Source: a virus
Reading direction: 5' to 3' (one strand)
Length of the DNA stretch: 64,000 bases
Virus record (IMG/VR): IMGVR_UViG_3300045988_136447
Span: 1-64,000 of that record
The position numbers and the translations under genes were made by a program. Under the pieces are notes generated by a model. That model saw only the letters and a list, made by a program, of their open reading frames with translations, was not told the DNA's origin and searched no databases. Below are positions 9,118-56,747 of the stretch, piece after piece (position 1 is the stretch's first letter; each line of letters opens with the position of its first letter).

Positions 9118-9126
9118 GGAGGAAGT

Positions 9127-10389: not shown

Positions 10390-10412
10390 GAGCGGAAATT
10401 ATTAATTTATGG

Positions 10413-10464
10413 GCTTGAAATAAGTTAAATTCATGTTATATTACATTATTAACTTATTTCAAGC
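10413..10464 (+). promoter_or_regulatory. Promoter TTGAAA-N16-TGtTATATT embedded in a perfect 16-bp inverted repeat (gcttgaaataagttaa / ttaacttatttcaagc)
   Basis: Hexamers plus palindrome read directly. Confidence 0.5.
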
Positions 10465-10478
10465 ATGGAGAAAACCAA

Positions 10479-18741: not shown

Positions 18742-19609
18742 TAACTTTGTACACTCACCGATGACATATACAGGGTCTAAGGATAAACTGTTATCCTTTT
18801 TACTTCCCTTATTCCCTGATAATATATGTACGCTGTATGATATGTTTTGTGGTGGACTAGCCATCACACTCAATACAAAAGCGGAAAAATATGTTGCAAA
18901 TGATATATGCAGGCAGCTGATCTGTATGTATAACCACATGCGCATTGCCCGGACTTCACTGTTTACACATAGTGTAGATGAGGTTATTTCTAGGTATGCC
19001 ATTGATACTTTAAGTGTGGAATCATACAATAAACTAAGAGATGATTACAACTTTATAGTGGCAACGCGGAGAGAGACTGAGTTTGACAGCGCCGTTATGT
19101 TATTTGTGTTAATTGCATATGCATATAACAGCGTTGTACGGTTCAATTCTGATGGGGAATTTAACACCCCTGCTGGTAAACAGAATAACAATCTAAACCC
19201 AAAACGTCGTGAGGCACTAAAAGAGTTTATTAACACTATTGTAAATAAGTATGTACTGTTTACGGCTATGCCTTTCAATGAAGCTATGCCGCAAATAGAA
19301 CACATGGATAAGAACGATTTTGTATACTGCGACCCACCGTACATGCTTACGTCTGCGGAGTACAATAAATTGTGGAGTTACAGTAATGAGTACCTGTTAT
19401 ACTCTACGCTTGACAAACTTAATGCCACAGGAGTGCGGTTCGGGTTATCAAACGTAGTCCGGTACAAAGGGAAGTTTAATCATGTGTTAGCTGACTGGAT
19501 GAGTAAATACACAGTACATTTTATAAACAAGGACGCTTATGCTGGAAGTTACCGTGTGAAAAGAAAAGAAGATGACATTACACAAGAAGTGTTTGTTTGC
19601 AACTACTAA
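18716..19609 (+). CDS. dam: DNA N6-adenine methyltransferase (Dam-like)
   Basis: Motif I FCGGLAI, motif IV DPPY. Confidence 0.85.
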   Translation: MEKLRMQADNFVHSPMTYTGSKDKLLSFLLPLFPDNICTLYDMFCGGLAITLNTKAEKYVANDICRQLICMYNHMRIARTSLFTHSVDEVISRYAIDTLSVESYNKLRDDYNFIVATRRETEFDSAVMLFVLIAYAYNSVVRFNSDGEFNTPAGKQNNNLNPKRREALKEFINTIVNKYVLFTAMPFNEAMPQIEHMDKNDFVYCDPPYMLTSAEYNKLWSYSNEYLLYSTLDKLNATGVRFGLSNVVRYKGKFNHVLADWMSKYTVHFINKDAYAGSYRVKRKEDDITQEVFVCNY

Positions 19610-28368: not shown

Positions 28369-28951
28369 GCAGTCACTACAAAATAAGATTGCATATAAAA
28401 ATGTAATCATTAAACAGTTGGATGCCAAGAAAGCTCAATACGCTAAACTGAAACATGAACTGGAAGTTGCGACAAGTACTCAAGCGCTGATTCAGGAAGC
28501 CGCACAACTTACACTATCCAGCATTTCGGTCAAGATAGATACCATCGTAACTAAGGTTATTCAGACGGTGTTTTCGAAGCCGTATAAATTCCATTTGGAG
28601 TTCAGAATCCTGTATGGGAAACTCGCTACGGATATGTATCTTGAGAGAGACGGAAAGCGCTATGATCCGAAATCAGATAACGGTGACGGCATGGTAGATA
28701 TCGTAGCGCTGGCACTGAGGGTTGCAGTAATCTGCCTGGATAAGCGAAACTTGAGAAGGATTCTTATTCTTGATGAGCCTTGCGGAGCACTGTCCGTAAA
28801 CTTCCAAGAGTACCTTGGAAAGATGTTGGAGTATTTTAGAGAAAAATTGAACTTTCAAATTTTTATGATTGCGGCACATGGTTCAAATTTGAATATCGAA
28901 TCCGCAAAATATTTTGATGTTCAGAATTTCATTGAGAATGGAGAATACTAA
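28328..28951 (+). CDS. sbcC: SbcC/Rad50-like ATPase, C-terminal half (coiled coil + head B)
   Basis: Walker B/D-loop ILILDEPCGALS; AGGAGA RBS before ATG 28328. Confidence 0.7.
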   Translation: MISKENMGICSTIEQSLQNKIAYKNVIIKQLDAKKAQYAKLKHELEVATSTQALIQEAAQLTLSSISVKIDTIVTKVIQTVFSKPYKFHLEFRILYGKLATDMYLERDGKRYDPKSDNGDGMVDIVALALRVAVICLDKRNLRRILILDEPCGALSVNFQEYLGKMLEYFREKLNFQIFMIAAHGSNLNIESAKYFDVQNFIENGEY

Positions 28952-28952
28952 T

Positions 28953-28976
28953 AAAGGGGGCCGAGTGGCCCCCTTT
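28953..28976. terminator. Bidirectional rho-independent terminator aaaGGGGGCCgagtGGCCCCCttt
   Basis: Perfect GC stem flanked by A- and T-runs at convergence of + and - gene blocks. Confidence 0.8.
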
Positions 28977-28980
28977 ATCA

Positions 28981-29316
28981 TTACACTCCGGTGACAAAGA
29001 ACTTACGTGTAAACTTATCGTAAGTAATCACGTAAGTCACGTCAGCGGTCAGAGAAGTAGCGGTAAGCTGCGCCCCCGTAACTCCCGAATACAGCGGAGC
29101 GGAAGAACCGCAACACGTAGCGAGAAACACGAGGTTCGATGCCGTAGGGCTGATAATCGGAATATTAACCCGAAAAAGCTCATTCCGGCACAGATTGCAC
29201 ATTCTTGCATTGATTCCAACGTTCATAGACGTATCGGAAACGGAAACCGAAGCCTTATACACCCAATTACCGTTGCAGTCTCGATACTCATTACTGCAAA
29301 GACAGTTGCAAGCCAT
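28981..29316 (-). CDS. hypothetical Cys-rich protein
   Basis: ORF; GGAGG RBS before internal ATG. Confidence 0.4.
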   Translation of the reverse strand: MACNCLCSNEYRDCNGNWVYKASVSVSDTSMNVGINARMCNLCRNELFRVNIPIISPTASNLVFLATCCGSSAPLYSGVTGAQLTATSLTADVTYVITYDKFTRKFFVTGV

Positions 29317-29345
29317 AGTATCACCTCCTTCCATTGAGGATGGGA

Positions 29346-29792
29346 TTAGTTGCAACCGCAACCGCACGAGGGATACGACTTCACGCCACAGCCTGTAACG
29401 ATGCTGTTAAGGGTATTGTTGACCTGCGAAAGCTGATTGTTGGTCTGGCAGCCCACGGCATTGACGATCGCCTGAGTGCGGAGAGCCTGAATCTCATTCG
29501 CCTGATCGGTGATCTTCTGCTGATTGATAGCGGCAAACCCTTCACGGATAAGCTGCGCATTCGCATTGGTCTGCTGAGCGATGAAGTTGAGTCCGGCGCG
29601 ATTCTCACCAGTATATTCGCCTTGCTGGAAACAGGTCTGACAGCCGCCGCCTTGCATCGCATTGCCACAGCTTCCAAATCCATTTCCGAAAGCGTTGTTT
29701 TTACCAACGAGATAGCCGCCGATACCACCGATTACAGCGCCCCAAAGCGGCCCCCAACCGTTACCCGTGTTGTTTGTGACTGTTTCGTACAT
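29346..29792 (-). CDS. hypothetical Gly-rich protein with N-terminal glycine-zipper TM-like segment
   Basis: GAVIGGIGGYLVG; GNGFGSCGN; C-terminal CGCGCN. Confidence 0.45.
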   Translation of the reverse strand: MYETVTNNTGNGWGPLWGAVIGGIGGYLVGKNNAFGNGFGSCGNAMQGGGCQTCFQQGEYTGENRAGLNFIAQQTNANAQLIREGFAAINQQKITDQANEIQALRTQAIVNAVGCQTNNQLSQVNNTLNSIVTGCGVKSYPSCGCGCN

Positions 29793-29804
29793 AATCCGTA
29801 CTCC

Positions 29805-30323
29805 TTATTGCGCTTTATTACTATCTGAATCAGAGCTTGCGCCAGCTTCCGATTCAGCCCACGGCGGCTTACCGCCGACCGTGGTACGTTCAACTTTAGG
29901 CATCCCATTAGTTTCTTCCGGCTCTTCCGGGATAAGTCCGGCAGCTTTCGCTTTCGGAATGAATCTTTCAGCCACGTTGTCAGACAGAACTTTCAGCTTT
30001 TCGACAGTGGTATCCTTCCATCCCCTGTTCTTTCTGAACGAAATACATACGTCCATAAGGGAGTAGCCGGAAAGACTGGCGGCGGCAATTTCAGATTCCC
30101 AATCTGCAAATCCAAGAGCAAGCCCCCCCTGATAATACCTATCAAACATTGCTTGCTGTTCTGCCGCTTTATTGACAAGTCCGGGGCCGTTGTTGACGGT
30201 ATCGATAAATGTGTTGAAAGATTTGATAACATGATCTGCCGGTTGTCTGAATATGGATTCAATCTTAGCTTTTGTGCTAGGATTATTCATAATGAAAGGC
30301 ATAATCAAATCTTGAAGATTCAT
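29805..30323 (-). CDS. hypothetical protein
   Basis: ORF. Confidence 0.45.
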   Translation of the reverse strand: MNLQDLIMPFIMNNPSTKAKIESIFRQPADHVIKSFNTFIDTVNNGPGLVNKAAEQQAMFDRYYQGGLALGFADWESEIAAASLSGYSLMDVCISFRKNRGWKDTTVEKLKVLSDNVAERFIPKAKAAGLIPEEPEETNGMPKVERTTVGGKPPWAESEAGASSDSDSNKAQ

Positions 30324-30664
30324 TACTCTTCCTCCATGAGATCATGCGCAAAACTGGAAGTCTGAAACTCCATAGCTTCGTAGATCACTTCGGCGAAAGT
30401 AACCCAATCACCGGTGACAACGGCTCTACGGATGGCATGAGCGATTTCGTCTTTCACTTGATCTTCCGTTTTCGGTTTGAAATCGAGGCAGAACACGTTT
30501 CTCAAGTTTTCACGGGCCTTATCATGCATCTCTTCAATGTATTCGGATGCCTTGTCGCACATGTGGGAATACGACCGCATATGATGCTTAGCGATCAGTT
30601 CAATATCCGCGCAGTGGAGTTCGACCTCTTTTCCGTCATGCAGCTTAAATTTTACGAGTTCCAT
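30323..30664 (-). CDS. hypothetical protein
   Basis: ORF. Confidence 0.45.
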   Translation of the reverse strand: MELVKFKLHDGKEVELHCADIELIAKHHMRSYSHMCDKASEYIEEMHDKARENLRNVFCLDFKPKTEDQVKDEIAHAIRRAVVTGDWVTFAEVIYEAMEFQTSSFAHDLMEEE

Positions 30665-30774
30665 ATAACCACCTCAAAGTATTACATCTAACGAGTGAAT
30701 TCCCGTTGACTGGTGATACATTATTGCAATCGTAATTGTAATGCAAAATAAAAAGAACATGACTATTGAAAATA

Positions 30775-31176
30775 TCAATAGTCATGTTTAAAGGAATTTA
30801 AAATCGAGAGAATGTCTCGAAAAGCTGTTTTATCGAATTTTAGAGACTTGTCCGGGTACACCTCATGGCGCAACCACAGCCTCCTGCGGCAATGATTGCA
30901 TACTTGATTTGCGTTCATCTCCTCTTTCGGGAAGTATTTACCGCAACCACCTCTACAACGTACTCCCCTGTTACACTCCTCTTTATGTTTGGCTTGTTTA
31001 AAGATGTAATCATGTAAGCATACCAGTGTAGCGTAATCGTAATGGTAAATCGGTCTACCAAACGCGGTCTTAGTTGTGAACACCGGATCGATCTCAAGTT
31101 TCGAAAGCAGCCACCTAAGCGTTTTATCCGGTAATCCGGTTATTTTCATAAGCTGTTTTCGGGTATAAGTTTCCAT
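30775..31176 (-). CDS. DNA-binding protein: N-terminal HTH (MerR/excisionase-like) + C-terminal Cys4 zinc finger
   Basis: KQLMKITGLPDKTLRWLL; CRGGCGK…CNHCRRR. Confidence 0.5.
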   Translation of the reverse strand: METYTRKQLMKITGLPDKTLRWLLSKLEIDPVFTTKTAFGRPIYHYDYATLVCLHDYIFKQAKHKEECNRGVRCRGGCGKYFPKEEMNANQVCNHCRRRLWLRHEVYPDKSLKFDKTAFRDILSILNSFKHDY

Positions 31177-31196
31177 GTAAAATAACCTAAAATCGT

Positions 31197-31242
31197 GTCA
31201 CTGTGATGTCACTGTGATGTCACTGTGATGTCACAGTGACAT
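31197..31242. repeat. 3.5 tandem copies of 11-bp unit GTCACTGTGAT ending in perfect palindrome TGTCACAGTGACA; putative operator array
   Basis: Seen directly; located in the 65-bp gap upstream of HTH/Zn gene start (31176). Confidence 0.8.
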
Positions 31243-31610
31243 TAATTTCGACTCCTAGACAGGGTTTGCCGCGCGTTGTCGTAGGCGCGTTTGGCATTAT
31301 CTGCGGTGGTTTGCATTTCTTTCATCTGTGACGTGAACTCGGAAAGTTCTCTTTGAGTAGACGCAAGATCACGATTCAAGATCAAAACCAAGATAAATGC
31401 GATTAGGGCTAAAGTACTTGTCAAGAGGTGGAAGGCGCTGCTTGCGATAAACAAAATCATGATAACCGTTTTGTTTGAAACCACTTGTTTATCAACGCTG
31501 TGCTGGATGTGCTCTTTGAATGCTTCCCAATCATTCATCTGTTCGATGTCAGACTTCAATGGATTATTTTGGAGCATACTCATTTCCTTATTTAGTAGTT
31601 GTGCGGTCAC
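31242..31610 (-). CDS. hypothetical membrane protein (one long TM segment + coiled coil)
   Basis: VIMILFIASSAFHLLTSTLALIAFILVLIL. Confidence 0.45.
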   Translation of the reverse strand: MTAQLLNKEMSMLQNNPLKSDIEQMNDWEAFKEHIQHSVDKQVVSNKTVIMILFIASSAFHLLTSTLALIAFILVLILNRDLASTQRELSEFTSQMKEMQTTADNAKRAYDNARQTLSRSRN

Positions 31611-32397
31611 ATACAGAGTGAATCCACTTAATTACTTCCTGTGTATCAAACGGTTTAATGCCGTCTGCGTCAATGTACGCAATCGGCCGTTTCCGATAAT
31701 AGGTAAACGGAAATTTGTTGTGCAAGTGCAAAACCCTTCCCGGGTACATTGCCGCGGCCATACAGAGGGTTCCGGAGTTTACCCCGATGAATGCTTGGCA
31801 TTGCTGTAAAACGCCTGTAAACGCTGTTACAGACGGTTCTACACCGCGCGTAGAGCAGTTTACAAAGTCATACGGTTCATTCTTGACATTATACTGCATG
31901 TGCCGGAAATACACTTCGATCGGAACTTTACCGCAGGATTGAATAGCCTGCCACACTTGTTTAGCAACGTGGTACGGGATATTATAATTTGAGTTGCTGT
32001 TGCACATAAAAGATACCCCGATAAACGGAGACTGTACTTTAGGCGGTTGCCATGTGAAATCCAAACTCAAATCAAAATCAATTCCAAGCTCATGAATGCA
32101 GCAGCACTCCGGTTTGGAATACTTTTGAAATCTATAATCAGTTGGAGTTTCGTGAAATACGATTACAAATACATAGTCATAGTATGCCTGCTCTTTTGGC
32201 TGCGGAAAGATATCAGTTCTTCCTTCAGCCCATTCAACTGCAATTTCACTCTGTGGGTACTGATTTTGAAGCCGCAAAAGGAGCGGCATAAACATAACAT
32301 CATCCCCAAGACCATGAGGAAAGTAAAGAAGGGCTTTGCATCCTTCTTTAAGATACTCCGCTACTTTCTTTTTACTAAAATCTCTAATTATAATCAT
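31588..32397 (-). CDS. GT9 (heptosyltransferase)-like glycosyltransferase, second copy
   Basis: ALLYFPHGLGDDVMFMPLLLRL…; C-terminal FIGVNSGTLCMAAAMYPGRVLHL. Confidence 0.45.
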   Translation of the reverse strand: MIIIRDFSKKKVAEYLKEGCKALLYFPHGLGDDVMFMPLLLRLQNQYPQSEIAVEWAEGRTDIFPQPKEQAYYDYVFVIVFHETPTDYRFQKYSKPECCCIHELGIDFDLSLDFTWQPPKVQSPFIGVSFMCNSNSNYNIPYHVAKQVWQAIQSCGKVPIEVYFRHMQYNVKNEPYDFVNCSTRGVEPSVTAFTGVLQQCQAFIGVNSGTLCMAAAMYPGRVLHLHNKFPFTYYRKRPIAYIDADGIKPFDTQEVIKWIHSVCDRTTTK

Positions 32398-32399
32398 AA

Positions 32400-33131
32400 T
32401 CAGTGTTGTTTAATAAACAAATGAAATTGCATACACGAAATTTTACCTAAATGGATAATCGAAAATCCACATTTTTCTGCAATACATCTCAGCGTATTTT
32501 TTGAATACAGCATTACGTGTCCAACCCTCGGACACGTATAGTAATTCGTCTTCACCTCCATCATATCATCAGTCACATCAGTACTGACAAGTACTGCACC
32601 TCCAAGATAAAGCATATTACTGAACTTTTTAAATGTCTCAACAATATTGTAATCGTGTTCAATCACTTCTGTACAGGTTATCAGCTCATATTTATCGCGA
32701 AGTGGCTCTGCGTTTACAGAGTAGTATGGATCATAGCCATACACTCTTGAAAATCCATCTTTACGCAATCTATCGATCCAAAATCCATTACCGCATCCGT
32801 AGTCCAAAATGTAAGCACCGGAGCATAGATAATAGTTGAACATTGTATGCATTAAATTATACATACAGGTAGGTCTATTTCCATGTTCATTGATAATATC
32901 AGAATCATACTTTGCGTATGCCTCATTGTAAACATGTTCTTTAAACTCTGAAGTGCCCCAATTACGTTGAGTTTCTGAGAAATAAAGACCACACTCACTA
33001 CAATGCCTGTAATCGATAGTAGGGCTGAAGTCAGACCCATCAAGGTTGATTTTCCCATTCCTGAAAGGAACTGTAAACACAAAATCGGAGCTGTATCCGC
33101 AGACTGGACACAAGGTGGTATTTGTAGTCAT
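32400..33131 (-). CDS. class I SAM-dependent methyltransferase with N-terminal zinc-ribbon (sugar C/O-methyltransferase-like architecture)
   Basis: CPVCGYS…CSECGLYF; motif I ILDYGCGNGFW. Confidence 0.7.
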   Translation of the reverse strand: MTTNTTLCPVCGYSSDFVFTVPFRNGKINLDGSDFSPTIDYRHCSECGLYFSETQRNWGTSEFKEHVYNEAYAKYDSDIINEHGNRPTCMYNLMHTMFNYYLCSGAYILDYGCGNGFWIDRLRKDGFSRVYGYDPYYSVNAEPLRDKYELITCTEVIEHDYNIVETFKKFSNMLYLGGAVLVSTDVTDDMMEVKTNYYTCPRVGHVMLYSKNTLRCIAEKCGFSIIHLGKISCMQFHLFIKQH

Positions 33132-33358
33132 TGTTTACTATCTAATTTGGTTTCTATTCGATTTAAGGATGCCCTGAATTCCATACACTTATCTTTACAG
33201 TCTGATCGTAGCATGTAATCTTCTCTGGTATCATGCAACAAATCAGCAATCTCTTTTACTGAGGCAGTAAGTTCTTTAAGATTTGGACGGTAGACAAACG
33301 CAGCAATCCCCCATACCGCGCCGACAATTCCAACAATATAAGAGATCGATTCAAGCAT
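33128..33358 (-). CDS. small membrane protein (holin-like candidate)
   Basis: N-terminal TM IVGIVGAVWGIAAFVY followed by charged tail. Confidence 0.35.
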   Translation of the reverse strand: MLESISYIVGIVGAVWGIAAFVYRPNLKELTASVKEIADLLHDTREDYMLRSDCKDKCMEFRASLNRIETKLDSKQ

Positions 33359-33432: not shown

Positions 33433-33457
33433 ATGGGAAACCTATAAGGTTTCCCAT
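33433..33457. terminator. Stem-loop atgggaaacc-tataa-ggtttcccat flanked by A/T runs; left boundary of GC-rich island
   Basis: Inverted repeat seen directly. Confidence 0.6.
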
Positions 33458-33465
33458 TTATTTTA

Positions 33466-33912
33466 CTATTCTACGGAAGGTGTAGGATTGGAAATTTGGC
33501 TGTTATCTGTTGTATTCTTGAGCAAATCAACTCGATACTGCCAATAGAGTTTCATGACTTCGATATAGGAGGCTGCGGCTTCCGGGGAATTTTCGGAAAG
33601 GTCGACCAGATAGCCGGTGATCTGCGGGCCGACGTCGCGGCGCAGGCGTTTCACGCCTTTGATGTTTCCGGTACTGTCGTCGACCGAAACGCCGTTGTCG
33701 GCATCGATTTCGACATCCCAGCTTGCGTTCTCCCGGCTGACGTCGATGACGTTCAGGCCGTCCGTGTAGCTGGCATTAGCCGTTGCGTTCTGCGGATCAA
33801 TCCCGAGATTGACACGGGTCCCGAGCGTGAAGGCTCCTGTGTTGTGGCTGCATCCCGGCAGCAGCAGCGCGGCGGCGATGACGGTGATGGTGATAAGAAT
33901 TGTCTGTTTCAT
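33466..33912 (-). CDS. lipoprotein (signal peptide + lipobox LLPGC)
   Basis: MKQTILITITVIAAALLLPGCSHN; GC-rich. Confidence 0.55.
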   Translation of the reverse strand: MKQTILITITVIAAALLLPGCSHNTGAFTLGTRVNLGIDPQNATANASYTDGLNVIDVSRENASWDVEIDADNGVSVDDSTGNIKGVKRLRRDVGPQITGYLVDLSENSPEAAASYIEVMKLYWQYRVDLLKNTTDNSQISNPTPSVE

Positions 33913-34116
33913 TGTTTCCGGTCTCCTTTATTTAATGATCGCGGCGGTTGTCGCCGCGATTGCCACGATGGTGGTCGCACGCTTTGTACGACACTTTATG
34001 TTTGTCGATCTTGTTGATTTTCCGGAGCATCTGGTTCTGCCCTTTTCGATGCGTTTCTGCACCCGCAGCCGTCCGAGCAAAAGCGGGCCTACGACTGCAA
34101 AGATTTTCCGACGGCT

Positions 34117-34566
34117 TCAAGATGCTCCATTGGCCGCCTCCTTGTACTTCCACGCCCAGCCGCCGAATTCGCGCAGGATCGCGTGAAACTTCCGCATCTG
34201 TTTGCGAACCCAATAGCGGCGCGGATCGTACCAGCCGTAGCGGTAATTCGCCAGCTTCAGGCCGTTTTCAAGCATCTCGTCGTCAGCGTCCTTGCGTTCC
34301 GCTTCCGTACCGCCGAGCGCGCAGCGGATGTCGTGGATATCGGCGGCAAGAACAAGGGTCGGGTTCAATCCGCTGATCACCTCCCGCAGCCATTCAGGCA
34401 TCCAGTCCGCGCCGATGCCGTTGCAGACGCGACAGGCGCGTTCGCGGTCAAGCAGCAGTTCCGCGCCGGAAAGTTTCGCCGCTTTCGCAAGCGCAATTTT
34501 CTCTTCAATTTCATTCAGACTGTACATCCGTAACCTCCTGTTCCGCTTGTGTCTCTGCCAATTCAT
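34117..34566 (-). CDS. hypothetical protein (GC-rich island)
   Basis: ORF; codon bias consistent with island. Confidence 0.4.
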   Translation of the reverse strand: MNWQRHKRNRRLRMYSLNEIEEKIALAKAAKLSGAELLLDRERACRVCNGIGADWMPEWLREVISGLNPTLVLAADIHDIRCALGGTEAERKDADDEMLENGLKLANYRYGWYDPRRYWVRKQMRKFHAILREFGGWAWKYKEAANGAS

Positions 34567-34972
34567 CCATTTTCGCCCGGACTGCTTCGATGGTCAGATC
34601 GAACGCGGCGAGCCAAACCGGAACGCGCGAATCCTTTAGGTCGATCTGCCCACCGGGAGCGGCGTCGGAGGTCAGCAGCGCCAGTCCCGCGATGCCCTGC
34701 TTGAAGGTATCCGGGTTCTGTAGCGCCGCCGCCAGCTGATCCGCTGGAATCAGCGCATAGAGCGCGTTGATGAACGCTTCCTTATCCACCCATTCTTCCG
34801 TCGGTTCCGGCTCGGGAAGTTCGATGATCTCGCCGTCCACGATGTCCAGACGCGAAAGCGGCAGCGTGCTATCACAGCGCAGGTAGCCGTGTGCGGCGTA
34901 GTATTCCGCGCCGCGATAGGGCGGGATGGGCGACTCCTCGACGTATCCGTTGATTTTTCGTATGTATCTCAT
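34511..34972 (-). CDS. hypothetical protein (possible fibre assembly factor), start at MRYIRK with GGAGGA RBS
   Basis: ORF, RBS. Confidence 0.4.
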   Translation of the reverse strand: MRYIRKINGYVEESPIPPYRGAEYYAAHGYLRCDSTLPLSRLDIVDGEIIELPEPEPTEEWVDKEAFINALYALIPADQLAAALQNPDTFKQGIAGLALLTSDAAPGGQIDLKDSRVPVWLAAFDLTIEAVRAKMDELAETQAEQEVTDVQSE

Positions 34973-34986
34973 TGGTTCCTCCAAAG

Positions 34987-36693
34987 TTATGCTTGTTTCG
35001 GCGTCAGCGCCGCGATTTCGGCGGCGGAAAGCGCACGGTCGAACAGCAGACACGAATGAATTTTTCCGTAATAGTTACTCCACAAACCATTGCGATTATC
35101 CATCAGCGCGAATGAATCGGGACAGGCATAACCATCCATTTTCGGAATCCCGTTAACAATTTCTGATTTAAGCAGAACTCCGCAATGATAAATGGAAAGT
35201 CTGGTTTTATCATCCATCAGCTCGACAACAGCGACAACGGAGTTACGTCCGGCCAGATGGCCGGGGAGGATTGCCTCCGACAGATGTCTGGCGCCTGCAA
35301 TATCTACGCTGACTTCGAGTCGATATTCAAGCGTATCTACATTGAGCTGCTTATTGTAATTGACGGCAAGCGGAGACGGGATACTTCCTTTCGACGCCCC
35401 TTGTCCGGCAAGTTCTTGTTTACAATAATTAACGGATTCATTTTCCAAAGCCGCCGCGTCAAATTCAACGAACAATGTGTAATCTGAAATTTTTCCGCGC
35501 AAATCCAGCGCGGTATCGACCCTCGCCGGTCGCGTTTCGTCCGCCGCCTCGAACGCCCCCCGGTTGGTGCGGACGTTCGTTTTCGTGATGAGCCGCACCC
35601 GCTCCGCTTCGGACGGATAGCTCCAGACGGTGCGGCCGGAGGTCAGGCTTTTCCAGTACGTTTCGAAGATGACGCCGTCGAAATCGGAGACCGGAGCCGT
35701 TGTTGAATAAACCGCAATTTTCTTCGTTCCAGCCGAAGAAGTTGCCACAACTTCACCGTCAAATTCGACAGTGACGAACAGGCCGACGCGCTGAATACGG
35801 ATCGTGTGTTCTCCAAGCTGCCGAATGCGGTCCAGCGGAATCATAAAGGCACCCACGTCCGTCAGGCGGATGACGCTGTAATTGCCGCCCGTACCGTCAC
35901 CGGCAAAAGCAATATTGATGCTGCCGTTCTGCGAATTGTGATAGAAAATCTGGCTGATCGCCGAGCCTTCCGGATAACCGTCCAGCCGGTAGCGGATGAA
36001 AAATTCACAGTCATCCTCCCCAATCGAAGGGGCGGTTGTTTCTTCATCCCGCCACGCCTCCGGCTCCTCCGCGAAGTTGCGCGGAACGGGCGACGGCCAC
36101 GGATTCGACGTGTCGTTCAGATCGGAGTATGCTGCCTGCCAGACGGCCGTTCCCGTCGAATCGTCGGTCAGGGAAACCGCGTGAAGCGTCACCGGGGCGG
36201 AGGTCGTCACCACCCGGTTGTAAGCGGACGACTCCACACGTTCGCCGCTCTGCTCGTACACCGGGCCGTCCACCGTAACCCGTAACGTGGCGCCCTCGAC
36301 GGCCAGGGTGACTTCATGCCGCCCGGCCAGCGAAGACGCAAACGGAGCGTACACGAACACCCCGCCGTTGAACGAGTAACTTCCGAATACAAACCGGCAA
36401 CCGCGGGCGTCCTTGTCCAATGCAAAGGAGATTCTTCCGTTGCTCTGGTACATGATCCAATAGCTGCCGTTTTCGAAATCGTCGGCAACCGTGAAGTCGA
36501 ACGTAAAGTGATAATCGCTCGTCCAGGGGAGCGACGAATACATGGCGGCCTGTAGCGCATCCCACCGGTATCCCTCGCTGAAGTCGCGCGGCATCGCCGG
36601 GCGCAGACGGCTCCACCAGGAGCCGCCCCGGTCGGGCGTCAGGCAGAGCAGGCAGGACGGATCCTGCGCGGCGTCGGTGATCGGGTCTCTCAT
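34987..36693 (-). CDS. tail fibre / receptor-binding protein candidate with lectin (LamG/ConA)-like domains
   Basis: Size, position distal to tail genes, beta-rich repeats with W/Y/G pattern; GC-rich. Confidence 0.45.
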   Translation of the reverse strand: MRDPITDAAQDPSCLLCLTPDRGGSWWSRLRPAMPRDFSEGYRWDALQAAMYSSLPWTSDYHFTFDFTVADDFENGSYWIMYQSNGRISFALDKDARGCRFVFGSYSFNGGVFVYAPFASSLAGRHEVTLAVEGATLRVTVDGPVYEQSGERVESSAYNRVVTTSAPVTLHAVSLTDDSTGTAVWQAAYSDLNDTSNPWPSPVPRNFAEEPEAWRDEETTAPSIGEDDCEFFIRYRLDGYPEGSAISQIFYHNSQNGSINIAFAGDGTGGNYSVIRLTDVGAFMIPLDRIRQLGEHTIRIQRVGLFVTVEFDGEVVATSSAGTKKIAVYSTTAPVSDFDGVIFETYWKSLTSGRTVWSYPSEAERVRLITKTNVRTNRGAFEAADETRPARVDTALDLRGKISDYTLFVEFDAAALENESVNYCKQELAGQGASKGSIPSPLAVNYNKQLNVDTLEYRLEVSVDIAGARHLSEAILPGHLAGRNSVVAVVELMDDKTRLSIYHCGVLLKSEIVNGIPKMDGYACPDSFALMDNRNGLWSNYYGKIHSCLLFDRALSAAEIAALTPKQA

Positions 36694-38099
36694 GGCTGCA
36701 CCTCCAGAATGACGCTGAGGACGACCGCCGTGACGGGAGTGTTCCCGGAATCTACGAGGGTGTCGCGTGCGTCGTCAGTGTCGCGCCGGAGCGCAAGCGT
36801 CCCGGAGGCGACTTCGAGTGCGAATTCCGCCACGGCCGGAGCCGCTCCGACTGCAACGACGAACGAGGTGCCGGAGAGCTCGGAGCCGTTCACGACCGGC
36901 ACGAGGACGATGTTTCCGGTCACGCCGGAATCGATGCTGACCGTCTCGAGCGAAACGCGCCGGAGACTCCGCACTCTCCCCCGGAAGCTCAGCTGCCGGA
37001 ACGCCGTATCGAGATACCGGCAGTCGCCCCACGTCTCATCCGCCACCGCCATCTCCGTCACAGGGTCTGCGATGATCGTAGGGCCTGTCTCTCCGCGCAG
37101 CGGGATCGCCGCAGACCAGTCTGCCGATGTCGCCGAGTTCTTGACATAGAAATTCCCCTCGTCAGTGGCGAAAAAGACGAAACCCTCTGCCTCCGCGTCA
37201 TACTGCGCCCGTTCCGAAACCGGCCCCGAAGCATCAAATGCCAGTCCGTTGCCCGGATCACCCTTGATGTTGATAGGTGTAGGATTAGGCAAGTCCCCAT
37301 CGTTTATCCACGAAATAACACCGTCAGAACTTACACTGGGGGTGTATATAAATCCACGTGCGACGGCGTACCCGGAGCTCCAATCAGCCCCGATATTGGC
37401 AATTCTTTCACGGTAATAGTTATCATGATCCTCAGATTGAGAATCAAACCACGTAATACCATCTTCACTCCACTGACGCTCCAGCGGATTGCGAAAATAG
37501 GAATTGATAAATGCAATCGCTTCAGTGCCTGTAGGGGGAACCACTTGTGCAGAACTCCAATCACGGATTGTATTTTTAGCAATAAACGGTATCCATGCAA
37601 TTGTTGAAGGATTTGACAATCCTTGCATATACTGCTTGACATTGATGTATACGCCCGTATTGATGCTTACTTTGTCCGTTGTAACTTCTTTAAACTTAAC
37701 GGTATCGGAATTTATCCTTATAGAAAGTTGTCCGGATGCAAAATCCGCTGTCCCACCGTCAACCCAGTCACCCTCGATATTAAACATATTGGAAGTAGGG
37801 TCTGCTTCGTCAAACGGAATGACAGACTGAAGAGATTTTGCCATCAGATAGTCGTCATCATCAAAGTTGTTATCAGCGACAAACACAAATGAAGTATCTG
37901 TGTCAAATGAAATCGGAGTGAATGTAACAGCTCCAGCTTCGTCCATCTGACGCTCACCGAACTGAATGCACAGGATTTGCCACTGGCCACGCTCAATATT
38001 GATATAGTCAGAGGATTTCGTGACAAAAGCCCCGTCTGCATACACCTGAGCGCGCGTATTTATGTCAATGTATGTAAGGGTCTTTTGCATATATGTCAC
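36690..38099 (-). CDS. tail fibre protein (C-terminal ~190 aa GC-rich)
   Basis: Position; KGDPGNGLAFDASGP collagen-like triplets; composition switch inside gene. Confidence 0.45.
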   Translation of the reverse strand: MTYMQKTLTYIDINTRAQVYADGAFVTKSSDYINIERGQWQILCIQFGERQMDEAGAVTFTPISFDTDTSFVFVADNNFDDDDYLMAKSLQSVIPFDEADPTSNMFNIEGDWVDGGTADFASGQLSIRINSDTVKFKEVTTDKVSINTGVYINVKQYMQGLSNPSTIAWIPFIAKNTIRDWSSAQVVPPTGTEAIAFINSYFRNPLERQWSEDGITWFDSQSEDHDNYYRERIANIGADWSSGYAVARGFIYTPSVSSDGVISWINDGDLPNPTPINIKGDPGNGLAFDASGPVSERAQYDAEAEGFVFFATDEGNFYVKNSATSADWSAAIPLRGETGPTIIADPVTEMAVADETWGDCRYLDTAFRQLSFRGRVRSLRRVSLETVSIDSGVTGNIVLVPVVNGSELSGTSFVVAVGAAPAVAEFALEVASGTLALRRDTDDARDTLVDSGNTPVTAVVLSVILEVQP

Positions 38100-38143
38100 C
38101 TCGTTTTAGCATAATATACTCCGATACTTTCAAATTTCAATCA

Positions 38144-40078
38144 CTAAACAAAGGATATATCTACAATATCAGAATTATAGTCTTTTCCTGTAAACGTAAG
38201 TAAACTACCAGAAGACGCACCCCCGACGCCTTCTCCTGCGATCCCGGCAGTCTCTGTCCAGTTCATCCATGTAAATGCTGCGCTGCCATCGCCTCCACGT
38301 CTTGCATACACATTTGAATTATCTATACCGTTTCTACCAATCACCCTGTAACCATTGCCACCGCCCCCACCAGACGGATAGCCGCAAGTTATAGTTCCCG
38401 GTTTTTGCAATCTGACACGTAACCCAAATTGATGTTCCGGGCTGATAGCTGTTGCATAACCCCTGACGGTAGTCATAGTGAACCACCAACGACTGGAGTA
38501 TATAGACCCACCCACAGACCAGTTATAGCCGTAAACTTCTCCTTGTGAAATAAGAGTTTCCAGATTTTCACCATCTGGAAGTTGTGCAATACCTCCCTGT
38601 GTTATCTGCACAGTAGTGTCACTTGCGTTCTTTATTTTTAAATCAAATACAGGAGGATCAAGCTCAAAGTTGTTGAATCCATTTTTGTATGGGCCGTATG
38701 TACATGTATTGTGCATAGTGATACTATTATTATAAGACTGACCTATACTTGTGGTCATGCTAGCAAGCCTAACCAAATTTCCTGTTCCATTATGTATAAC
38801 ATTTAAGTTTATGTTACTATTTTTAACATAAACTGCCTCAAACCACAGTGAACTATCGACAGTGCCACCCTCCCTGTCGTGATTGCGCGTACCATACTCA
38901 TTAGATGAGGTATACTTACCTCCCTTTCCGGCTCTTACATTGCTTAAGTCTAAGTTTAGATTAAATGTACAGGCGTTTACGTAATTTCCGAAGTCCAAAG
39001 ACAACCCAAGACCATAGACGCCACCGCCATTTCCACACCCTCCATCAGAGTAAGAAGAGGAAGCTAAACCGTTACCGCCATCACCTCCCCTGCAAGATGG
39101 GGCATACGTTACGTCAATTACACATCCATACATCTTTTGGGGGGAAAGATGGATAGCTTCTGAACCACCAGTAATACCACCCGATGAGTAGCCGCCATCA
39201 ACCCCGTCTCCACCACTTCCGGGGTTTCCATAATGCAAATCGAAGGTACAGGAATCGTATGCATCAGCACGTAGCCGTATTATACCCGCATCCCCTCCAG
39301 CACCACCATTAACCCCGCTTGCTCCGGATGCACCGTTTCCTCCGTTTCCAGTAGTGATGTCAAGATGGCACTTATACAGATAATTATAACGGCCTGAAAA
39401 AAGAGTGAGCCACGGGGTATCACCTTCAACTATATCAGAACCGCTCTTGTAAATAGTTTTGTGTTTTGGAGCTGTACCCTCTTCACCACTCTCTGTACCA
39501 TCTGTTCCGTTATGTTGTACCACCGTAAATGTGCATGTATGAAATACAACCCCTCCCAAGCAAATACAGGCAGCAGTCAGATTTGAGCGGTCGTAGATCA
39601 AAGGCACGGCTTCGCTGGTTTCATACCGGAATGTACAGTTATGGATAACCAAGTAGTTATAAAAATCAGCTACCGCATTATCTAACTGATTATACACCAT
39701 GTAGTCAACTACACCACGCACCAGTACATGAACCACTTGCCGCTGTGACACGGTTGTGTAATGGATTAAGGGATCATGCAACATATCATTCAACGAGGCG
39801 TAAGCTGTTTCCCACGACAAGCCATTTCCGCTGACAGCCTTTGAATGGTCTACGTATACGGTGTTTCCGATACAGTTAATAGTTGGTATCTCATTGGTAC
39901 TAAGGCTAAAGTACGCAGGTACTCCACGGCTGTACCCTATGGCCTTTGTCATTCTAGGGTATCCGACAACAACCCCCTTATTATATGTTCCCGGATTGTA
40001 GATCGACCCTCTACGGGTTAAGGCCCCGGCAGGGCCATTAACAGCTAGCGATCCACGTTTTGTCATGTTTGCAAACAT
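38144..40078 (-). CDS. tail spike/fibre with glycine-rich GGxGG repeats (beta-helix-like)
   Basis: NGGNGASGASGVNGGAGGDAG…; size 644 aa. Confidence 0.45.
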   Translation of the reverse strand: MFANMTKRGSLAVNGPAGALTRRGSIYNPGTYNKGVVVGYPRMTKAIGYSRGVPAYFSLSTNEIPTINCIGNTVYVDHSKAVSGNGLSWETAYASLNDMLHDPLIHYTTVSQRQVVHVLVRGVVDYMVYNQLDNAVADFYNYLVIHNCTFRYETSEAVPLIYDRSNLTAACICLGGVVFHTCTFTVVQHNGTDGTESGEEGTAPKHKTIYKSGSDIVEGDTPWLTLFSGRYNYLYKCHLDITTGNGGNGASGASGVNGGAGGDAGIIRLRADAYDSCTFDLHYGNPGSGGDGVDGGYSSGGITGGSEAIHLSPQKMYGCVIDVTYAPSCRGGDGGNGLASSSYSDGGCGNGGGVYGLGLSLDFGNYVNACTFNLNLDLSNVRAGKGGKYTSSNEYGTRNHDREGGTVDSSLWFEAVYVKNSNINLNVIHNGTGNLVRLASMTTSIGQSYNNSITMHNTCTYGPYKNGFNNFELDPPVFDLKIKNASDTTVQITQGGIAQLPDGENLETLISQGEVYGYNWSVGGSIYSSRWWFTMTTVRGYATAISPEHQFGLRVRLQKPGTITCGYPSGGGGGNGYRVIGRNGIDNSNVYARRGGDGSAAFTWMNWTETAGIAGEGVGGASSGSLLTFTGKDYNSDIVDISFV

Positions 40079-40080
40079 AC

Positions 40081-41106
40081 TTAACTCTCTATGAACGATT
40101 CATCAAACAGTACACTTTGAATGGTATCAACTGTTGTACTTGTCCATTTTATATCTATTACACCGGAAGTATGGCCTGTGATGTCAGAAACGGCATCATA
40201 TTGCGACTGCATACCCGAAGAAGAGCTTGAAATTACAATTTCTGATGAGGATATTGGTACAGTTGAACCAGCAGCATATTGCGGAGCTTTCCATCCGACA
40301 AATACGGGAAGCGTGTACGGTGTGTTGGACACAAATATCCCTGATGGATTTGCAGTTCCGGCTATGTAGCCATTCACCATGTAATTTCCCGAACTCAACT
40401 GCACTGACCCGTTTGGATTACATAGATATTTGTAATCAGAGCCTGTACTAGACGTAATAGGCGGCCCCGGAAGGGTACACCACGGCCCAATATATGTAGG
40501 GCCGATATCAACAGGGGTGTTTTGCTTTAGAAGCTGTGTAGCTTTGAGTGTTTTTGTACTCTCATCCCACGTGTAATACCCTATCTGGATTACACTCCCA
40601 TTGACGCCTCTGACATAGGGTGTACTATTCTCCAAAACGTATACGGCAGGAGTTTTTGTAACATCCATCACCAAAAACACGTAACGAGTTCCTGGAGTTT
40701 TTGACAGCGTATACGATGACACGTAGAACAGATCACCATTACCGAATCGGCACTTGCCGGAAGTTCCAGATTTTGGATCATTGGCGTCAACAACTACAAT
40801 AAACGGAACATTCGACTTTGTGCCGTCTTCATTTTCAACTTCACGGATTTCAGTTGTAATCGTAAACTGATACTTCTCTCCCGTCGCGGCAGCTTTAGGG
40901 GTTTCCGTTTGCGGCAGAGAAGAAGCAATGCCATTCGGTGACGCAGGTTTCGGTTTTACATAAGCCTGAATCCCGGTTGAAGTTCTGCGCCATGTGACAT
41001 CTGTTGAATCGACAGGTTGCAGAGCCACAAGCTCTTTGTAGATCATACCCAAGACATGACCTAATCCTTGTGTGTAGGTAGTTGGTCTGAACCACTTAAG
41101 TTCCAT
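40081..41106 (-). CDS. tail structural protein
   Basis: Position in tail module. Confidence 0.4.
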   Translation of the reverse strand: MELKWFRPTTYTQGLGHVLGMIYKELVALQPVDSTDVTWRRTSTGIQAYVKPKPASPNGIASSLPQTETPKAAATGEKYQFTITTEIREVENEDGTKSNVPFIVVVDANDPKSGTSGKCRFGNGDLFYVSSYTLSKTPGTRYVFLVMDVTKTPAVYVLENSTPYVRGVNGSVIQIGYYTWDESTKTLKATQLLKQNTPVDIGPTYIGPWCTLPGPPITSSTGSDYKYLCNPNGSVQLSSGNYMVNGYIAGTANPSGIFVSNTPYTLPVFVGWKAPQYAAGSTVPISSSEIVISSSSSGMQSQYDAVSDITGHTSGVIDIKWTSTTVDTIQSVLFDESFIES

Positions 41107-41108
41107 AC

Positions 41109-42971
41109 TTAATCCTCAACATACGAATTATCATACTTAGGATTCCAATACAACATAGTGAGCGCCTGAATAGTGCACGTGACATTTGTCCACGTTTCAT
41201 TGTAGCGGTCAACCGTCTCGTTAAGGCTGATATTCGTACCCTTATAGCTTGTAAATTTACTCGATTTGACATACTTTATCGCATTTTTATAGTATGTGGA
41301 AAATGAACGTCTAAGTATAGTACGTGCATTTCCTCGATAATACAAGCTCACACTGCACTCAAACATTGGAATTTTTTTGTCGATGTAACTTTTATCCCAA
41401 AACCGATCTCTGCCATCCCATTGCGGATAATTTGTTTTATGAGACCTTTCAAGTACAATAGGAGATACTTCCAAGCACTTCCACGGCATGAAATAGATAT
41501 TTCGAATACTGTTTCCATCCTGTGGCCAATCTTCTTTAGTAGTCCATGACGGCTGCGCGTACACGTAACCTGACATCACCAAGTCAGTAAGATCACCTTC
41601 CTTAATCGAATCGTACTTATTTTTAGGAATCCTACCAGTTACAGTTGCCCCGCTATCATCCGTGTACTGACCTATCGGGTAGATAATCGTATCATACCCG
41701 ATTTTTTTATTGCCCTTAACGGCGGCTATAATGGCACTCTCTGTCCACCCTTGAACGGCATTGCTTGTCTCAGATGACATATTGATAAATGTCTGAATAC
41801 TCTGCTGATAGGTAAAAGTGGTTGTAGGAGGAAAGTTAATAATGTAGTAGTCTACACCGGAAGCACCCATAGCCCACCCGCACCACAAAGGTTCAATAAC
41901 GATCTCAGTACTGCTCATTGAGATACCGATTTGATCTTCAAGTTCCTGCTGATCCGGGTAGTCGTCAGTGACGATGTTCAATTCATGCTCACCGTGAGCA
42001 ACTGTATTTACAGAAACTTCGCTGACTGTGCTTCCGGGAAGTCCCAATTCAAGTGCTTCCTGCCCGACAAGGCCGTCAAATGAATCTTTCAGCTCTTCCG
42101 TACTCTGATAGATGATCGTATTTGTAGTATTGATCTCTTTTCCATCTTTGTACGTCCGCTTATCTGTACGCACATGCCGCAGTGAGACGTGACGGGCTTC
42201 AAACGTGATATTATACCCGAGAACACCCTCTGCTGAAACATTGATGTTATTGATAAGAAATCCTGAGTTCGCAGGGAGACCGATGTACTCGGAAGCGTCA
42301 GAGCCGATCTCCGGCTTAATCCATGATTCATAGACCGAGTTTGAATAACGCCATACAGCAGTGCGCGTTCTCTGCCCGAAGGCATCCACAGTCTCGGCAG
42401 GATTTCCGATCATCATCTTAGCCATATCTTTGGCTGTGAACGTAATCAGGTATCTTGTCTTTGTCTGAGCTTGGTAACTGGAATTCTCCATCAGAAAAGA
42501 CGATCCGGCCCACGTTACGGTAGTACCGCTTTCGATCAGATAGTTATCAATCTCAAGCGGAGAATCGCTTTTGATGTCGATCTGATAAGAAATCGATTTT
42601 GTAATCTCATTATTATTTGTGACTTCAACCGATACGTTACCGACTTGTCTCATAACGGAAAGGTTCTGCGCATTAGTGAATGTCACCTCGTAATGAGTTC
42701 TACCGTCAACGCACACAATGTCGATTGACTGGCAGATGAACGCATCATCTTCTTCAAATTCAAACGCTTCTCTTCCATCATTCTGCTGGATCGGCCGTTT
42801 GTACGGGTCTCCGATATTGCCTGCCCACTCTTCGACCTCATTCTGAAACGCCAGCCATTTGGCAAAAACATTGTCGCTTTCATCATCAATCAACATCCAA
42901 GTAGTTGTGATCGACATGAAACCTTCTTGGTCAATATTTATAGCGGGAGACCCTTTTAAGCTTACAAGCAT
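41109..42971 (-). CDS. distal tail / baseplate-like structural protein
   Basis: 620 aa immediately downstream of tape measure gene. Confidence 0.45.
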   Translation of the reverse strand: MLVSLKGSPAINIDQEGFMSITTTWMLIDDESDNVFAKWLAFQNEVEEWAGNIGDPYKRPIQQNDGREAFEFEEDDAFICQSIDIVCVDGRTHYEVTFTNAQNLSVMRQVGNVSVEVTNNNEITKSISYQIDIKSDSPLEIDNYLIESGTTVTWAGSSFLMENSSYQAQTKTRYLITFTAKDMAKMMIGNPAETVDAFGQRTRTAVWRYSNSVYESWIKPEIGSDASEYIGLPANSGFLINNINVSAEGVLGYNITFEARHVSLRHVRTDKRTYKDGKEINTTNTIIYQSTEELKDSFDGLVGQEALELGLPGSTVSEVSVNTVAHGEHELNIVTDDYPDQQELEDQIGISMSSTEIVIEPLWCGWAMGASGVDYYIINFPPTTTFTYQQSIQTFINMSSETSNAVQGWTESAIIAAVKGNKKIGYDTIIYPIGQYTDDSGATVTGRIPKNKYDSIKEGDLTDLVMSGYVYAQPSWTTKEDWPQDGNSIRNIYFMPWKCLEVSPIVLERSHKTNYPQWDGRDRFWDKSYIDKKIPMFECSVSLYYRGNARTILRRSFSTYYKNAIKYVKSSKFTSYKGTNISLNETVDRYNETWTNVTCTIQALTMLYWNPKYDNSYVED

Positions 42972-56667: not shown

Positions 56668-56742
56668 GCCGATTTAGCTCAGTGGTAGAGCAGCAGTTTT
56701 GTAAACTGCCTGTCATCGGTTCAAATCCGATAATCGGCTCCA
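56668..56742 (+). tRNA. tRNA-Thr (anticodon UGU)
   Basis: Cloverleaf folded by hand: 7-bp acceptor GCCGATT/AATCGGC, D GCTC/GAGC, anticodon stem GCAGT/ACTGC loop TTTGTAA, T-loop TTCAAAT, encoded CCA. Confidence 0.75.
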
Positions 56743-56747
56743 AATAT

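Follow-up and report, generated by a model that had tools for sequence, protein, structure and literature searches.

Glycosyltransferases encoded by phages are known to act in DNA glucosylation, in O-antigen conversion and, as recognized recently, in the glycosylation of mycobacteriophage virions. The protein O-heptosyltransferases TibC and AAH of the BAHT family have so far been known as modifiers of bacterial adhesins. These enzymes hyper-heptosylate the passenger domains of self-associating autotransporters (PMC8498110), and TibC is described in the titles of its PDB entries as an iron-containing dodecamer. Here, we analyze a stretch of 64,000 nucleotides from a viral record (IMG/VR record IMGVR_UViG_3300045988_136447, positions 1 to 64,000; hereafter, the window), focusing on a minus-strand block at 29346-33358 that encodes a methyltransferase (MT) and a compact glycosyltransferase of the GT9 type (GT9L), and on a TibC-like enzyme that is encoded elsewhere in the window.

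A first-pass annotation described this block as a single compact cassette that pairs sugar-modifying enzymes with a regulator of their own under operator control. The minus-strand open reading frames (ORFs) of the block are positioned and composed as described there. We found that the enzyme unit and the island that follows it are two separable modules rather than one cassette. As judged from sequence comparison, MT and GT9L are a conserved sugar-modifying pair that lies outside any curated family, and the TibC-like enzyme is probably the partner of this pair in the same pathway. We estimate that this two-module, glycosylation-pathway reading as a whole has a probability of roughly 0.55.

The methyltransferase and the compact glycosyltransferase

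For family assignment, about 90 ORFs of the window were scanned with Pfam, and part of them also with PHROGs, whereas the ten proteins of the block were scanned with Pfam, PHROGs, NCBIfam and PADLOC. GT9L (31588-32397, minus strand; 269 amino acids) was assigned by structure and profile comparison. It has the two-Rossmann GT-B fold, and its nearest structural neighbors are GT9 enzymes, with TibC as the best one, in agreement with the GT9-like call that was made before; a sequence search against PDB returned only noise. The profile of GT9L retrieved 226 cluster representatives (at the 50% identity level) at E ≤ 1e-3, including 59 at 1e-30 or better, and this family of at least 226 clusters is described by no curated library. 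In the 59 members, residues G29, G31 and D32 are invariant and H28 is nearly so (HG-x-GD). The loop with this G-D motif, which contains the putative catalytic Asp, resembles the TLGD loop of TibC by motif only.

MT (32400-33131, minus strand) is a class I S-adenosylmethionine (SAM) methyltransferase of 243 amino acids with an N-terminal CxxC...CxxC zinc ribbon. The match to Methyltransf_23 (73.1 bits with a cut-off of 27, E = 2.9e-20) and the SAM-binding motif LDYGCGxG support the methyltransferase call of the first-pass annotation. The zinc ribbon, which had been taken to be of the sugar-pathway type, is present; its proposed type is not borne out, because MT matched generic methyltransferase families and a sub-threshold Zn_ribbon_8 only, and neither single-sequence nor profile searches connected it with any sugar-methyltransferase family or with the zinc-binding domain of one. 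Among solved structures, those closest to MT are of generic class I enzymes, UbiG being the best in the PDB profile search (1e-10). Thus, by profile and structure comparison, the two large proteins of the block are neither an endolysin nor a DNA methyltransferase.

The MT of the window is a divergent allele, with 64% identity to the allele that is common to seven related loci (L002, L003, L006-L009 and L028). The divergence is strongest in the first 100 residues (about 50-55%), and the flanking GT9L is 91-99% identical; on these identities, the MT of the window is a recombinational allele swap confined to one gene. The MT allele did not correlate with the tail-fibre allele: for example, the fibre of L003 is 98% identical to that of the window, but its MT is 64% identical. 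In two loci, L004 and L005, a one-base deletion in a T4 run (at about 7616) splits the MT ORF at the SAM-binding motif. It should be noted that both contigs come from one source metagenome, and that the frameshift may be either a real inactivation or a sequencing or assembly error.

The TibC-like enzyme

The gene at 9127-10389 (plus strand) is located 21 kb away from the pair, between the primase and exonuclease genes, and encodes a 420-amino acid homologue of TibC. Comparison with TibC (PDB 4rap_A, phmmer) gave an E value of 1.9e-71 for residues 26-371 against 23-364, with 39.3% identity over 338 aligned residues. The protein also matched Pfam Glyco_transf_9 (E = 2.3e-8), so that the second GT9-like enzyme that had been placed in the replication module is indeed there; for the Pfam domain TibC_1st, no match to this protein was reported. 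The features of TibC that are retained include the TLGD loop, the SGLSWLAW and ISGFSLP segments and the Cys-rich C-x-G-C-W...W-C-P-R region. Residues C346, C349 and C365 align with Cys residues of TibC in this region, which corresponds to the Cys cluster of the iron-finger motif, and a further Cys, C396, is found downstream. All close relatives, with or without the island, share the gene at 95-98% identity. No autotransporter family was matched among the ORFs of the window that were scanned.

A different phage from the same metagenome (L052, IMGVR_UViG_3300045988_176085, 113.6 kb) carries the genes for both enzymes side by side. At 8629-10792 of this contig, a gene for a 459-amino acid TibC-like protein (E = 1.6e-80 against the protein of the window, and with the counterpart of C396) overlaps the start codon of a gene for a 266-amino acid GT9L. 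Among the papers that our literature search on TibC or BAHT enzymes of phages covered, none dealt with a phage-encoded one. As a separate observation, a 1226-amino acid protein of Microcystis phage Mel-JY01 (PP395634.1, 3292-6972), which is annotated as "methyltransferase FkbM", has a C-terminal domain with 31% identity to the TibC-like enzyme of the window, and its neighbors include a structural protein and a cytidylyltransferase-like gene; records of uncultured phages of 636-735 kb gave similar matches.

Linkage and fusion of the enzymes across phages

The genes of the region were mapped onto nine related loci (L001-L009) and L028. The order MT-GT9L was found in 10 of these 10 loci, and the island in five of them; the conservation of gene order that the first-pass annotation proposed to look for holds for the pair and fails for the island in the other five. 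Distant GT9L loci were retrieved with a degenerate DNA pattern for F-x-H-G-L-G-D-x-x-M-F-x-P, which yielded eleven further, diverse viral contigs of 10-440 kb. Single distant members of the family, when used as IMG/VR queries, gave no match, and the broader GT9L alignments (A3, A4 and A10) were too divergent for locus search.

In very different phages, on contigs of 10-440 kb, MT and GT9L are adjacent or fused, usually together with a canonical GT9 gene. For example, in three contigs where GT9L is only 23-32% identical (L010, L012 and L013), a Methyltransf_23 gene is directly upstream and another glycosyltransferase gene is directly downstream. The fusions include LamG, zinc-ribbon MT and GT9L in one protein (P0011, with 30% identity of the MT part to the MT of the window), GT9 with GT9L (P0027 and P0038), GT9 with GT9L and MT (P0086), GT9L with MT (P0033), MT with GT9L (P0021 and P0026), and GT2 or Mannosyl_trans3 with GT9L. 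Among 68 proteins encoded next to GT9L, the most frequent Pfam families were Methyltransf_23 (11) and Glyco_transf_9 (4), and TibC_1st, Laminin_G_3, CTP_transf_like and Beta_helix were matched once each. A profile of the canonical GT9 domain, built from the fusions, matched the protein just upstream of GT9L in five contigs (L037, L051, L040, L041 and L049) and the part that is fused to GT9L in L050; in three more (L033, L034 and L036), matching ORFs near GT9L are cut by the end of the locus.

The position of the enzymes varies. In L037 and L051, we infer that the triad comes after the genes for protease, cement and major capsid proteins and shares their orientation, and in L026 the pair is on the replication strand. 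In distant relatives, the gene after GT9L differs each time; it is, for example, a gene for a 574-amino acid phosphoesterase in one phage, and genes for Endonuclease_NS and thioredoxin in another. Given the fusions and the gene overlap in L052, the TibC-like enzyme, GT9L and MT of the window are likely to belong to one pathway, although the genes are 21 kb apart.

The dispensable island and its putative regulator

The island comprises the genes for a transmembrane (TM) protein, a repeat array, the regulator, the 113-amino acid, 172-amino acid and Gly-rich proteins and part of a Cys-rich protein. It is present in the window and in L001, L004, L005, L006 and L028. In L002, L003, L007, L008 and L009, the stretch from 31583 to about 29270 is missing, with end points that differ. 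All five of these loci retain the MT, GT9L and TibC-like genes, and their GT9L proteins are 91-99% identical to that of the window (98.5% in L002); this is the observation that speaks against one compact cassette. The remnants of the Cys-rich protein in the loci without the island measure 103, 23, 18 or 0 residues. Clusters retrieved with the regulator as the query contained four in-frame fusions of the regulator with the Cys-rich protein (P0162, P0163, P0165 and P0168), each with a different junction, and some junctions are at short shared motifs (CN-x-CR and CG), which marks 29270-31590 as a deletion hot spot. The varied remnants and fusion junctions indicate that deletions in the island stretch recur in nature. 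Hairpins at 33433-33457, 31189-31248 and 30756-30788 delimit the block and divide it. Taken by itself, the island is of modest interest, as a clear case from nature of a moron region that is prone to deletion and has a regulator and a repeat array of its own.

The putative regulator (30775-31176, minus strand; 133 amino acids) has, in the AlphaFold2 model, an N-terminal winged helix, a long helix and a C4-type zinc ribbon. The first 60 residues are modelled with a predicted local distance difference test score above 90, and the winged helix has the topology beta-alpha-alpha-beta-beta. The earlier description as a helix-turn-helix (HTH) and zinc-finger protein is consistent with this model and with the fold matches to MerR-type proteins, which are weak and consistent with each other. 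A PADLOC match to mad1 (E = 0.0048) covers residues 1-26 only. The family of this protein is confined to the present phage lineage. A terminator-like hairpin with a perfect 14-bp stem and a T-run (30756-30788, minus strand) is located at the 3' end of the regulator gene.

The tandem array, which had been noted before and is a candidate operator, is at 31196-31239 (without strand) and consists of four 11-bp units, each with a 9-bp palindrome TCAC(A/T)GTGA (period 11, 4.0 copies, 96% matches). Its core, TCACNGTGA, has exact copies in the 64 kb only in the array and at one other site. Copies of TCACNGTGA with one mismatch occur across the window at the level expected by chance, so that there is no indication of a regulon. 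The copy number of the array varies (three in L004 and L005, four in the window and L006, six in L001), and the array always travels with the regulator gene. Both are absent in every distant phage with the enzyme pair. Because the regulator is encoded downstream of the enzymes, it cannot be their dedicated controller, and the claim of an operator-controlled regulator that governs the sugar enzymes is not sustained. Palindromic half-sites at helical-turn spacing next to a winged helix of the MerR/BldC kind would point to cooperative binding and to autoregulation or control of read-through.

The proposed pathway and its alternatives

We propose the following model. The genes from 33358 to 31588, i.e., those for a 76-amino acid TM protein, MT and GT9L, would form a small transcription unit with MT-GT9L as its core, and MT and GT9L would complete a three-enzyme set with the TibC-type enzyme at 9127-10389. 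The TibC-like enzyme is predicted to start the glycan in the cytoplasm by linking a sugar to side-chain hydroxyl groups of an acceptor protein; the homology suggests that this sugar would be heptose from host ADP-heptose. GT9L would add the next sugar and MT would cap or modify the glycan, so that the product would be a short, possibly methylated glycan. The genes from 31583 to 28981, i.e., those for the TM protein of the island, the MerR-like winged-helix and zinc-ribbon protein with its own terminator and four small proteins, together with the array, form a dispensable accessory island at the variable junction of the late and replication arms. The winged-helix protein most likely binds the array cooperatively and would control itself and the read-through from the enzyme unit, not the enzymes.

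If homology to TibC is a guide, the acceptor would be a protein and the first sugar heptose; the chance that the acceptor is a protein appears to us to be a little short of even. The first-pass annotation considered a host surface polysaccharide or, alternatively, a phage component as the target; the former is possible, and the TibC homology shifts the balance to a protein such as the latter. The likeliest acceptor would be a virion protein of the phage (tail fibre, tail protein or capsid). Such a protein is the most economical choice, given that it shares the cytoplasm with the enzymes, that the module is found in the structural arms of several lineages, and that there is a precedent in mycobacteriophages; we consider this assignment less likely than not. 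A 644-amino acid tail protein (38144-40078) contains Gly/Ser-rich runs (GNGGNGASGASGVNGGAGGDAG, GGDGGNGLASSSYSDGG and others) and has no family match; it may, speculatively, be a beta-helix and a glycosylation target, and is offered as a lead only. The most specific form of the model, namely a widespread three-enzyme phage system of a GT9 initiator, a GT9L extender and a SAM methyltransferase, with a TibC/BAHT-type initiator in this gut-type phage and a methylated, heptose-containing glycan on virion proteins, seems doubtful.

Several observations weigh against the proposed model or parts of it. No acceptor emerged from the analysis. The TibC-like gene adjoins genes for a Toprim primase and an RNase_T exonuclease, with no candidate substrate next to it. 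The window contains no recognizable heptose-activation genes, which makes the donor a guess. The structure of GT9L is nearly as close to the lipopolysaccharide (LPS) heptosyltransferases WaaF and WaaC as to TibC, so that an acceptor of the lipid-linked glycan type is equally compatible with the fold. GT9L did not match Pfam Glyco_transf_9 (PF01075) at E < 0.1, nor a counterpart of it in NCBIfam or PHROGs, and an hhalign comparison of GT9L with the TibC-like protein of the window was weak (E = 0.0024, probability 12%). No methyltransferase was found among the ORFs tested near the pair in L052, and MT is frameshifted in L004 and L005; hence, methylation is not obligatory. With regard to regulation, the 133-amino acid protein matched no HTH or other family in Pfam, PHROGs or NCBIfam, and its best Foldseek matches (BmrR, RacA, MtaN and BldC) are weak, with E values of 0.02-0.1. 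The array, as RNA, folds into a hairpin (-30.4 kcal/mol, z = -4.9), and it could be a terminator or a stability element instead of an operator.

The three enzymes might instead modify, in the infected cell, a glycan of the host that is carried on a lipid (LPS inner core, O-unit or capsule), with receptor masking, superinfection exclusion or a smaller loss of progeny on debris as the outcome. Such a surface conversion would be compatible with the fold of GT9L and in line with earlier interpretations of phage glycosyltransferase clusters (PMC7824862). However, the partner enzyme is similar over its full length (39% identity) to a protein-specific heptosyltransferase with a Cys cluster, and not to WaaC or WaaF, and the triad is embedded in the head-gene block in L037 and L051. 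No integrase or repressor family was matched among the ORFs of the window that were scanned, which leaves a long-term serotype conversion without an obvious setting, and no flippase, polymerase or acyltransferase of the O-antigen-conversion kind was matched either. On balance, we regard host surface conversion as unlikely.

The position of the TibC-like gene among replication genes would also be explained if the enzymes decorated bases of the phage DNA as a protection against restriction. Among the scanned ORFs of the window, however, no ThyS-like hydroxymethylase, TET/5mYOX dioxygenase or C5-cytosine methyltransferase was matched; the only DNA methyltransferase is a D12 N6-adenine enzyme, and the similarity of the TibC-like protein to a protein glycosyltransferase far exceeds that to any enzyme that glycosylates DNA, so that DNA hypermodification is improbable. 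More improbable still is that the block is a holin, endolysin and spanin cassette in unrecognizable form. The block does close the late arm, the enzymes have small TM proteins on either side, one of these proteins has a weak Rz-like spanin match (E = 0.0074), a holin gene (Phage_holin_3_3) and a lipoprotein gene are directly ahead of MT-GT9L in L031, and no endolysin family was found in the window. Against this, the two large proteins can be called with confidence as a SAM methyltransferase and a GT-B glycosyltransferase. Five close relatives lack all that follows GT9L, so that this part cannot be essential for lysis, and MT-GT9L is also encoded on the replication strand in L026 and within head modules in L037 and L051. 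At most, the 76-amino acid TM protein and the upstream lipoprotein may be lysis proteins. The view of the first-pass annotation that the block is not a standard lysis module is thereby upheld, as no peptidoglycan-hydrolase domain was matched in the ten proteins of the block and half of the block is absent in close relatives.

Small proteins and genome context

Upstream of the pair, a 76-amino acid protein is encoded at 33128-33358 (minus strand), in which a single TM segment at the N-terminus is combined with a charged helical tail. Its gene is preceded by a GGAGG ribosome-binding site, and its stop codon overlaps the MT start (ATGA). It matched phrog_462, which is annotated as "lipoprotein", and families without a known function. 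Homologues lie ahead of MT in close relatives and in L025; a more distant relative, L001, retains MT and GT9L and has no detectable homologue. The protein, which the first-pass annotation called holin-like, is possibly lysis-related. A palindromic hairpin (33433-33457, without strand) with a perfect 11-bp stem and T-runs on both sides, which resembles a bidirectional terminator, separates this unit from the gene for a 148-amino acid lipoprotein with the lipobox LLPGC (33466-33912, minus strand), which is outside the enzyme pair and is mentioned for context only. Several relatives have a small TM protein and a lipoprotein of about 145-150 amino acids ahead of the MT-GT pair; in L029, a 73-amino acid membrane protein and a lipoprotein are directly ahead of it. 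Two side observations concern Pfam NRDD: in L001 (8690-9238), a 75%-related phage, the homologue of the 148-amino acid lipoprotein has an extra N-terminal segment that matches this family, and in L025 a 57-amino acid ORF matching it comes after GT9L.

The first gene of the island (31242-31583, minus strand) encodes a membrane protein of 111-113 amino acids with hydrophobic residues at about 39-76 and a C-terminal coiled coil. The gene had been recognized before with a start at 31610; the likeliest start is 31577 or 31583. Beside the Rz-like match, the protein has a weak FtsL-like match. Behind the regulator, four small proteins without detectable relatives beyond this phage lineage are encoded on the minus strand: a 113-amino acid protein (30323-30664) and a 172-amino acid protein (29805-30323), both without a family match, a Gly-rich protein of 148 amino acids (29346-29792; 17% Gly) and a Cys-rich protein of 111 amino acids (28981-29316), whose gene is the last one of the minus-strand arm. 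The Gly-rich protein contains Cys residues, ends with CGCGCN and has a GxxxG-type stretch in its N-terminal part, as the earlier call of a glycine zipper implied; all glycine-zipper matches (E = 0.003-0.018) are under the Pfam cut-offs. A known defence system was considered and dropped, because PADLOC returned one marginal match, to mad1, for the ten proteins of the block. No endolysin, peptidoglycan-hydrolase or holin family was matched in the block or in the approximately 90 ORFs scanned, in keeping with the reported lack of an endolysin, and the candidates for the lysis genes of the phage are the proteins encoded between 33128 and 35053.

The window is a phage genome with a plus-strand replication arm (894-28951) and a minus-strand late arm (56035-28981); related IMG/VR contigs measure 59-70 kb. 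The replication arm encodes an SNF2 helicase, Toprim primase, RNase_T exonuclease, DnaB-like and loader proteins, a UDG-like/exonuclease domain, PolA, D12 adenine methylase, clamp loader, ligase, 5'-3' exonuclease and SbcCD-like proteins. The late arm encodes terminase, portal, a Gp13-like capsid protein, tape measure, and tail and fibre proteins; the tail proteins are at 34987-42971 and the major capsid protein is at 50585-51604. The block is the 3' end of the late arm, just ahead of a GC-rich palindrome (AAAGGGGGCC/GGCCCCCTTT; 28925-29004, without strand) at the junction of the convergent arms. A comparison of the block, MT and GT9L with 50,697 GenBank phages by megablast and tblastn gave no match, and the best match of the large terminase subunit (TerL) is 36%, to a Leptospira phage, so that no cultured phage is close. 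When GT9L and the TibC-like protein were each scanned against 185,579 bacterial genomes, neither had a relative there, which provides neither a host assignment nor a prophage context.

Some further features of the genome were recorded. The G+C content is 0.556-0.562 at 34000-38000, compared to about 0.41-0.49 in the remaining genome. This segment encodes a DUF1353-like protein of 149 amino acids, a 180-amino acid protein, a 568-amino acid fibre (with a weak Laminin_G_3 match) and a 469-amino acid tail protein; the identity of the fibre is 30-98% among relatives that are otherwise close, and the segment has the appearance of a receptor-binding region that is exchanged horizontally. At 16154-18741, the family A DNA polymerase is divided between a 404-amino acid protein with UDG-superfamily and 3'-5' exonuclease domains and a separate 457-amino acid polymerase that follows it. 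The D12-class N6-adenine DNA methyltransferase is encoded at 18716-19609 in the replication arm and is the only recognizable DNA-modification enzyme. Two adjoining tRNA genes, tRNA-Thr(TGT) and tRNA-Gln(TTG), are at 56668-56821, where the arms diverge.

Comparison with known systems

Three elements here extend these known roles of phage glycosyltransferases: a compact GT9-type family of at least 226 clusters, with a phage-type contig in every context sampled; a near-obligate pairing or fusion of GT9L with a methyltransferase and a second GT9, from fragments of 10 kb to a contig of 440 kb; and a phage copy of the TibC/AAH protein heptosyltransferase. If the acceptor were a virion protein, this would be a testable case of phage-particle glycosylation in human-associated phages, with a bearing on host range and on the immune recognition of therapeutic phages. 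Virion heptosylation, if true, would be the first case of protein heptosylation by a virus and would give phages a new means of tuning adsorption, stability or immune visibility. If the acceptor were a host adhesin or LPS, the enzymes would represent a new kind of phage-driven surface remodelling.

Of the described DNA-binding proteins, the MerR-type domains of BldC, RacA, BmrR and MtaN, all of which have been solved on DNA, are the best fold matches of the 133-amino acid protein of the island. Its C4 zinc ribbon and C-terminal helices have no counterpart in these domains. BldC occupies direct repeats in a head-to-tail manner, and lambda Xis assembles into a filament where its sites are closely spaced; by analogy, an 11-bp array beside the gene would suit such a binding mode.

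Virion O-glycosylation in mycobacteriophages, where phage glycosyltransferases modify capsid and tail-tube proteins (Freeman et al. 2023, as summarised in PMC12619734), is a precedent for the proposed class of acceptor. The hosts there are actinobacteria. The clusters for hypermodification of phage DNA with sugars, in which a C5-methyltransferase/5mYOX or ThyS is combined with GT-A or GT-B enzymes (bioRxiv 10.1101/2023.12.21.572611), also include GT-B enzymes of phages, sometimes acting with heptose or Kdo, and are often located near replication genes. Unlike in these clusters, no enzyme that would make the hydroxymethyl base was matched among the scanned ORFs of the window, and the MT of the window is a generic, UbiG-like class I enzyme and not a DNA C5 enzyme.

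Compared to the LPS heptosyltransferases WaaC and WaaF (CAZy GT9), GT9L has the same GT-B topology, with the G-D motif in the first loop of the N-domain and G-x-x-S-G in the C-domain, but is 50-80 residues shorter. At the position where GT9 enzymes carry Asp-Ser/Thr-Gly, the GT9L family has a variable N/A/V/G-S-G segment. In contrast to WaaC and WaaF, GT9L occurs, in the contexts sampled, on phage-type contigs beside methyltransferases.

The closest described relatives are the BAHT enzymes (TibC and AAH; PDB 4rap and 4rb4), to which the TibC-like protein of the window can be aligned over nearly its full length, with the Cys region retained. The gene of the window does not adjoin an autotransporter gene and lies between replication genes of a phage of the lytic type. 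The phage adds to this enzyme a methyltransferase and another, much shorter enzyme of the GT9 type, and, to our knowledge, the bacterial BAHT systems have neither. Phage-encoded glycosylation is of a known kind; the real point of interest is the conserved, uncurated GT9-MT-GT9L triad with a member of the TibC type.

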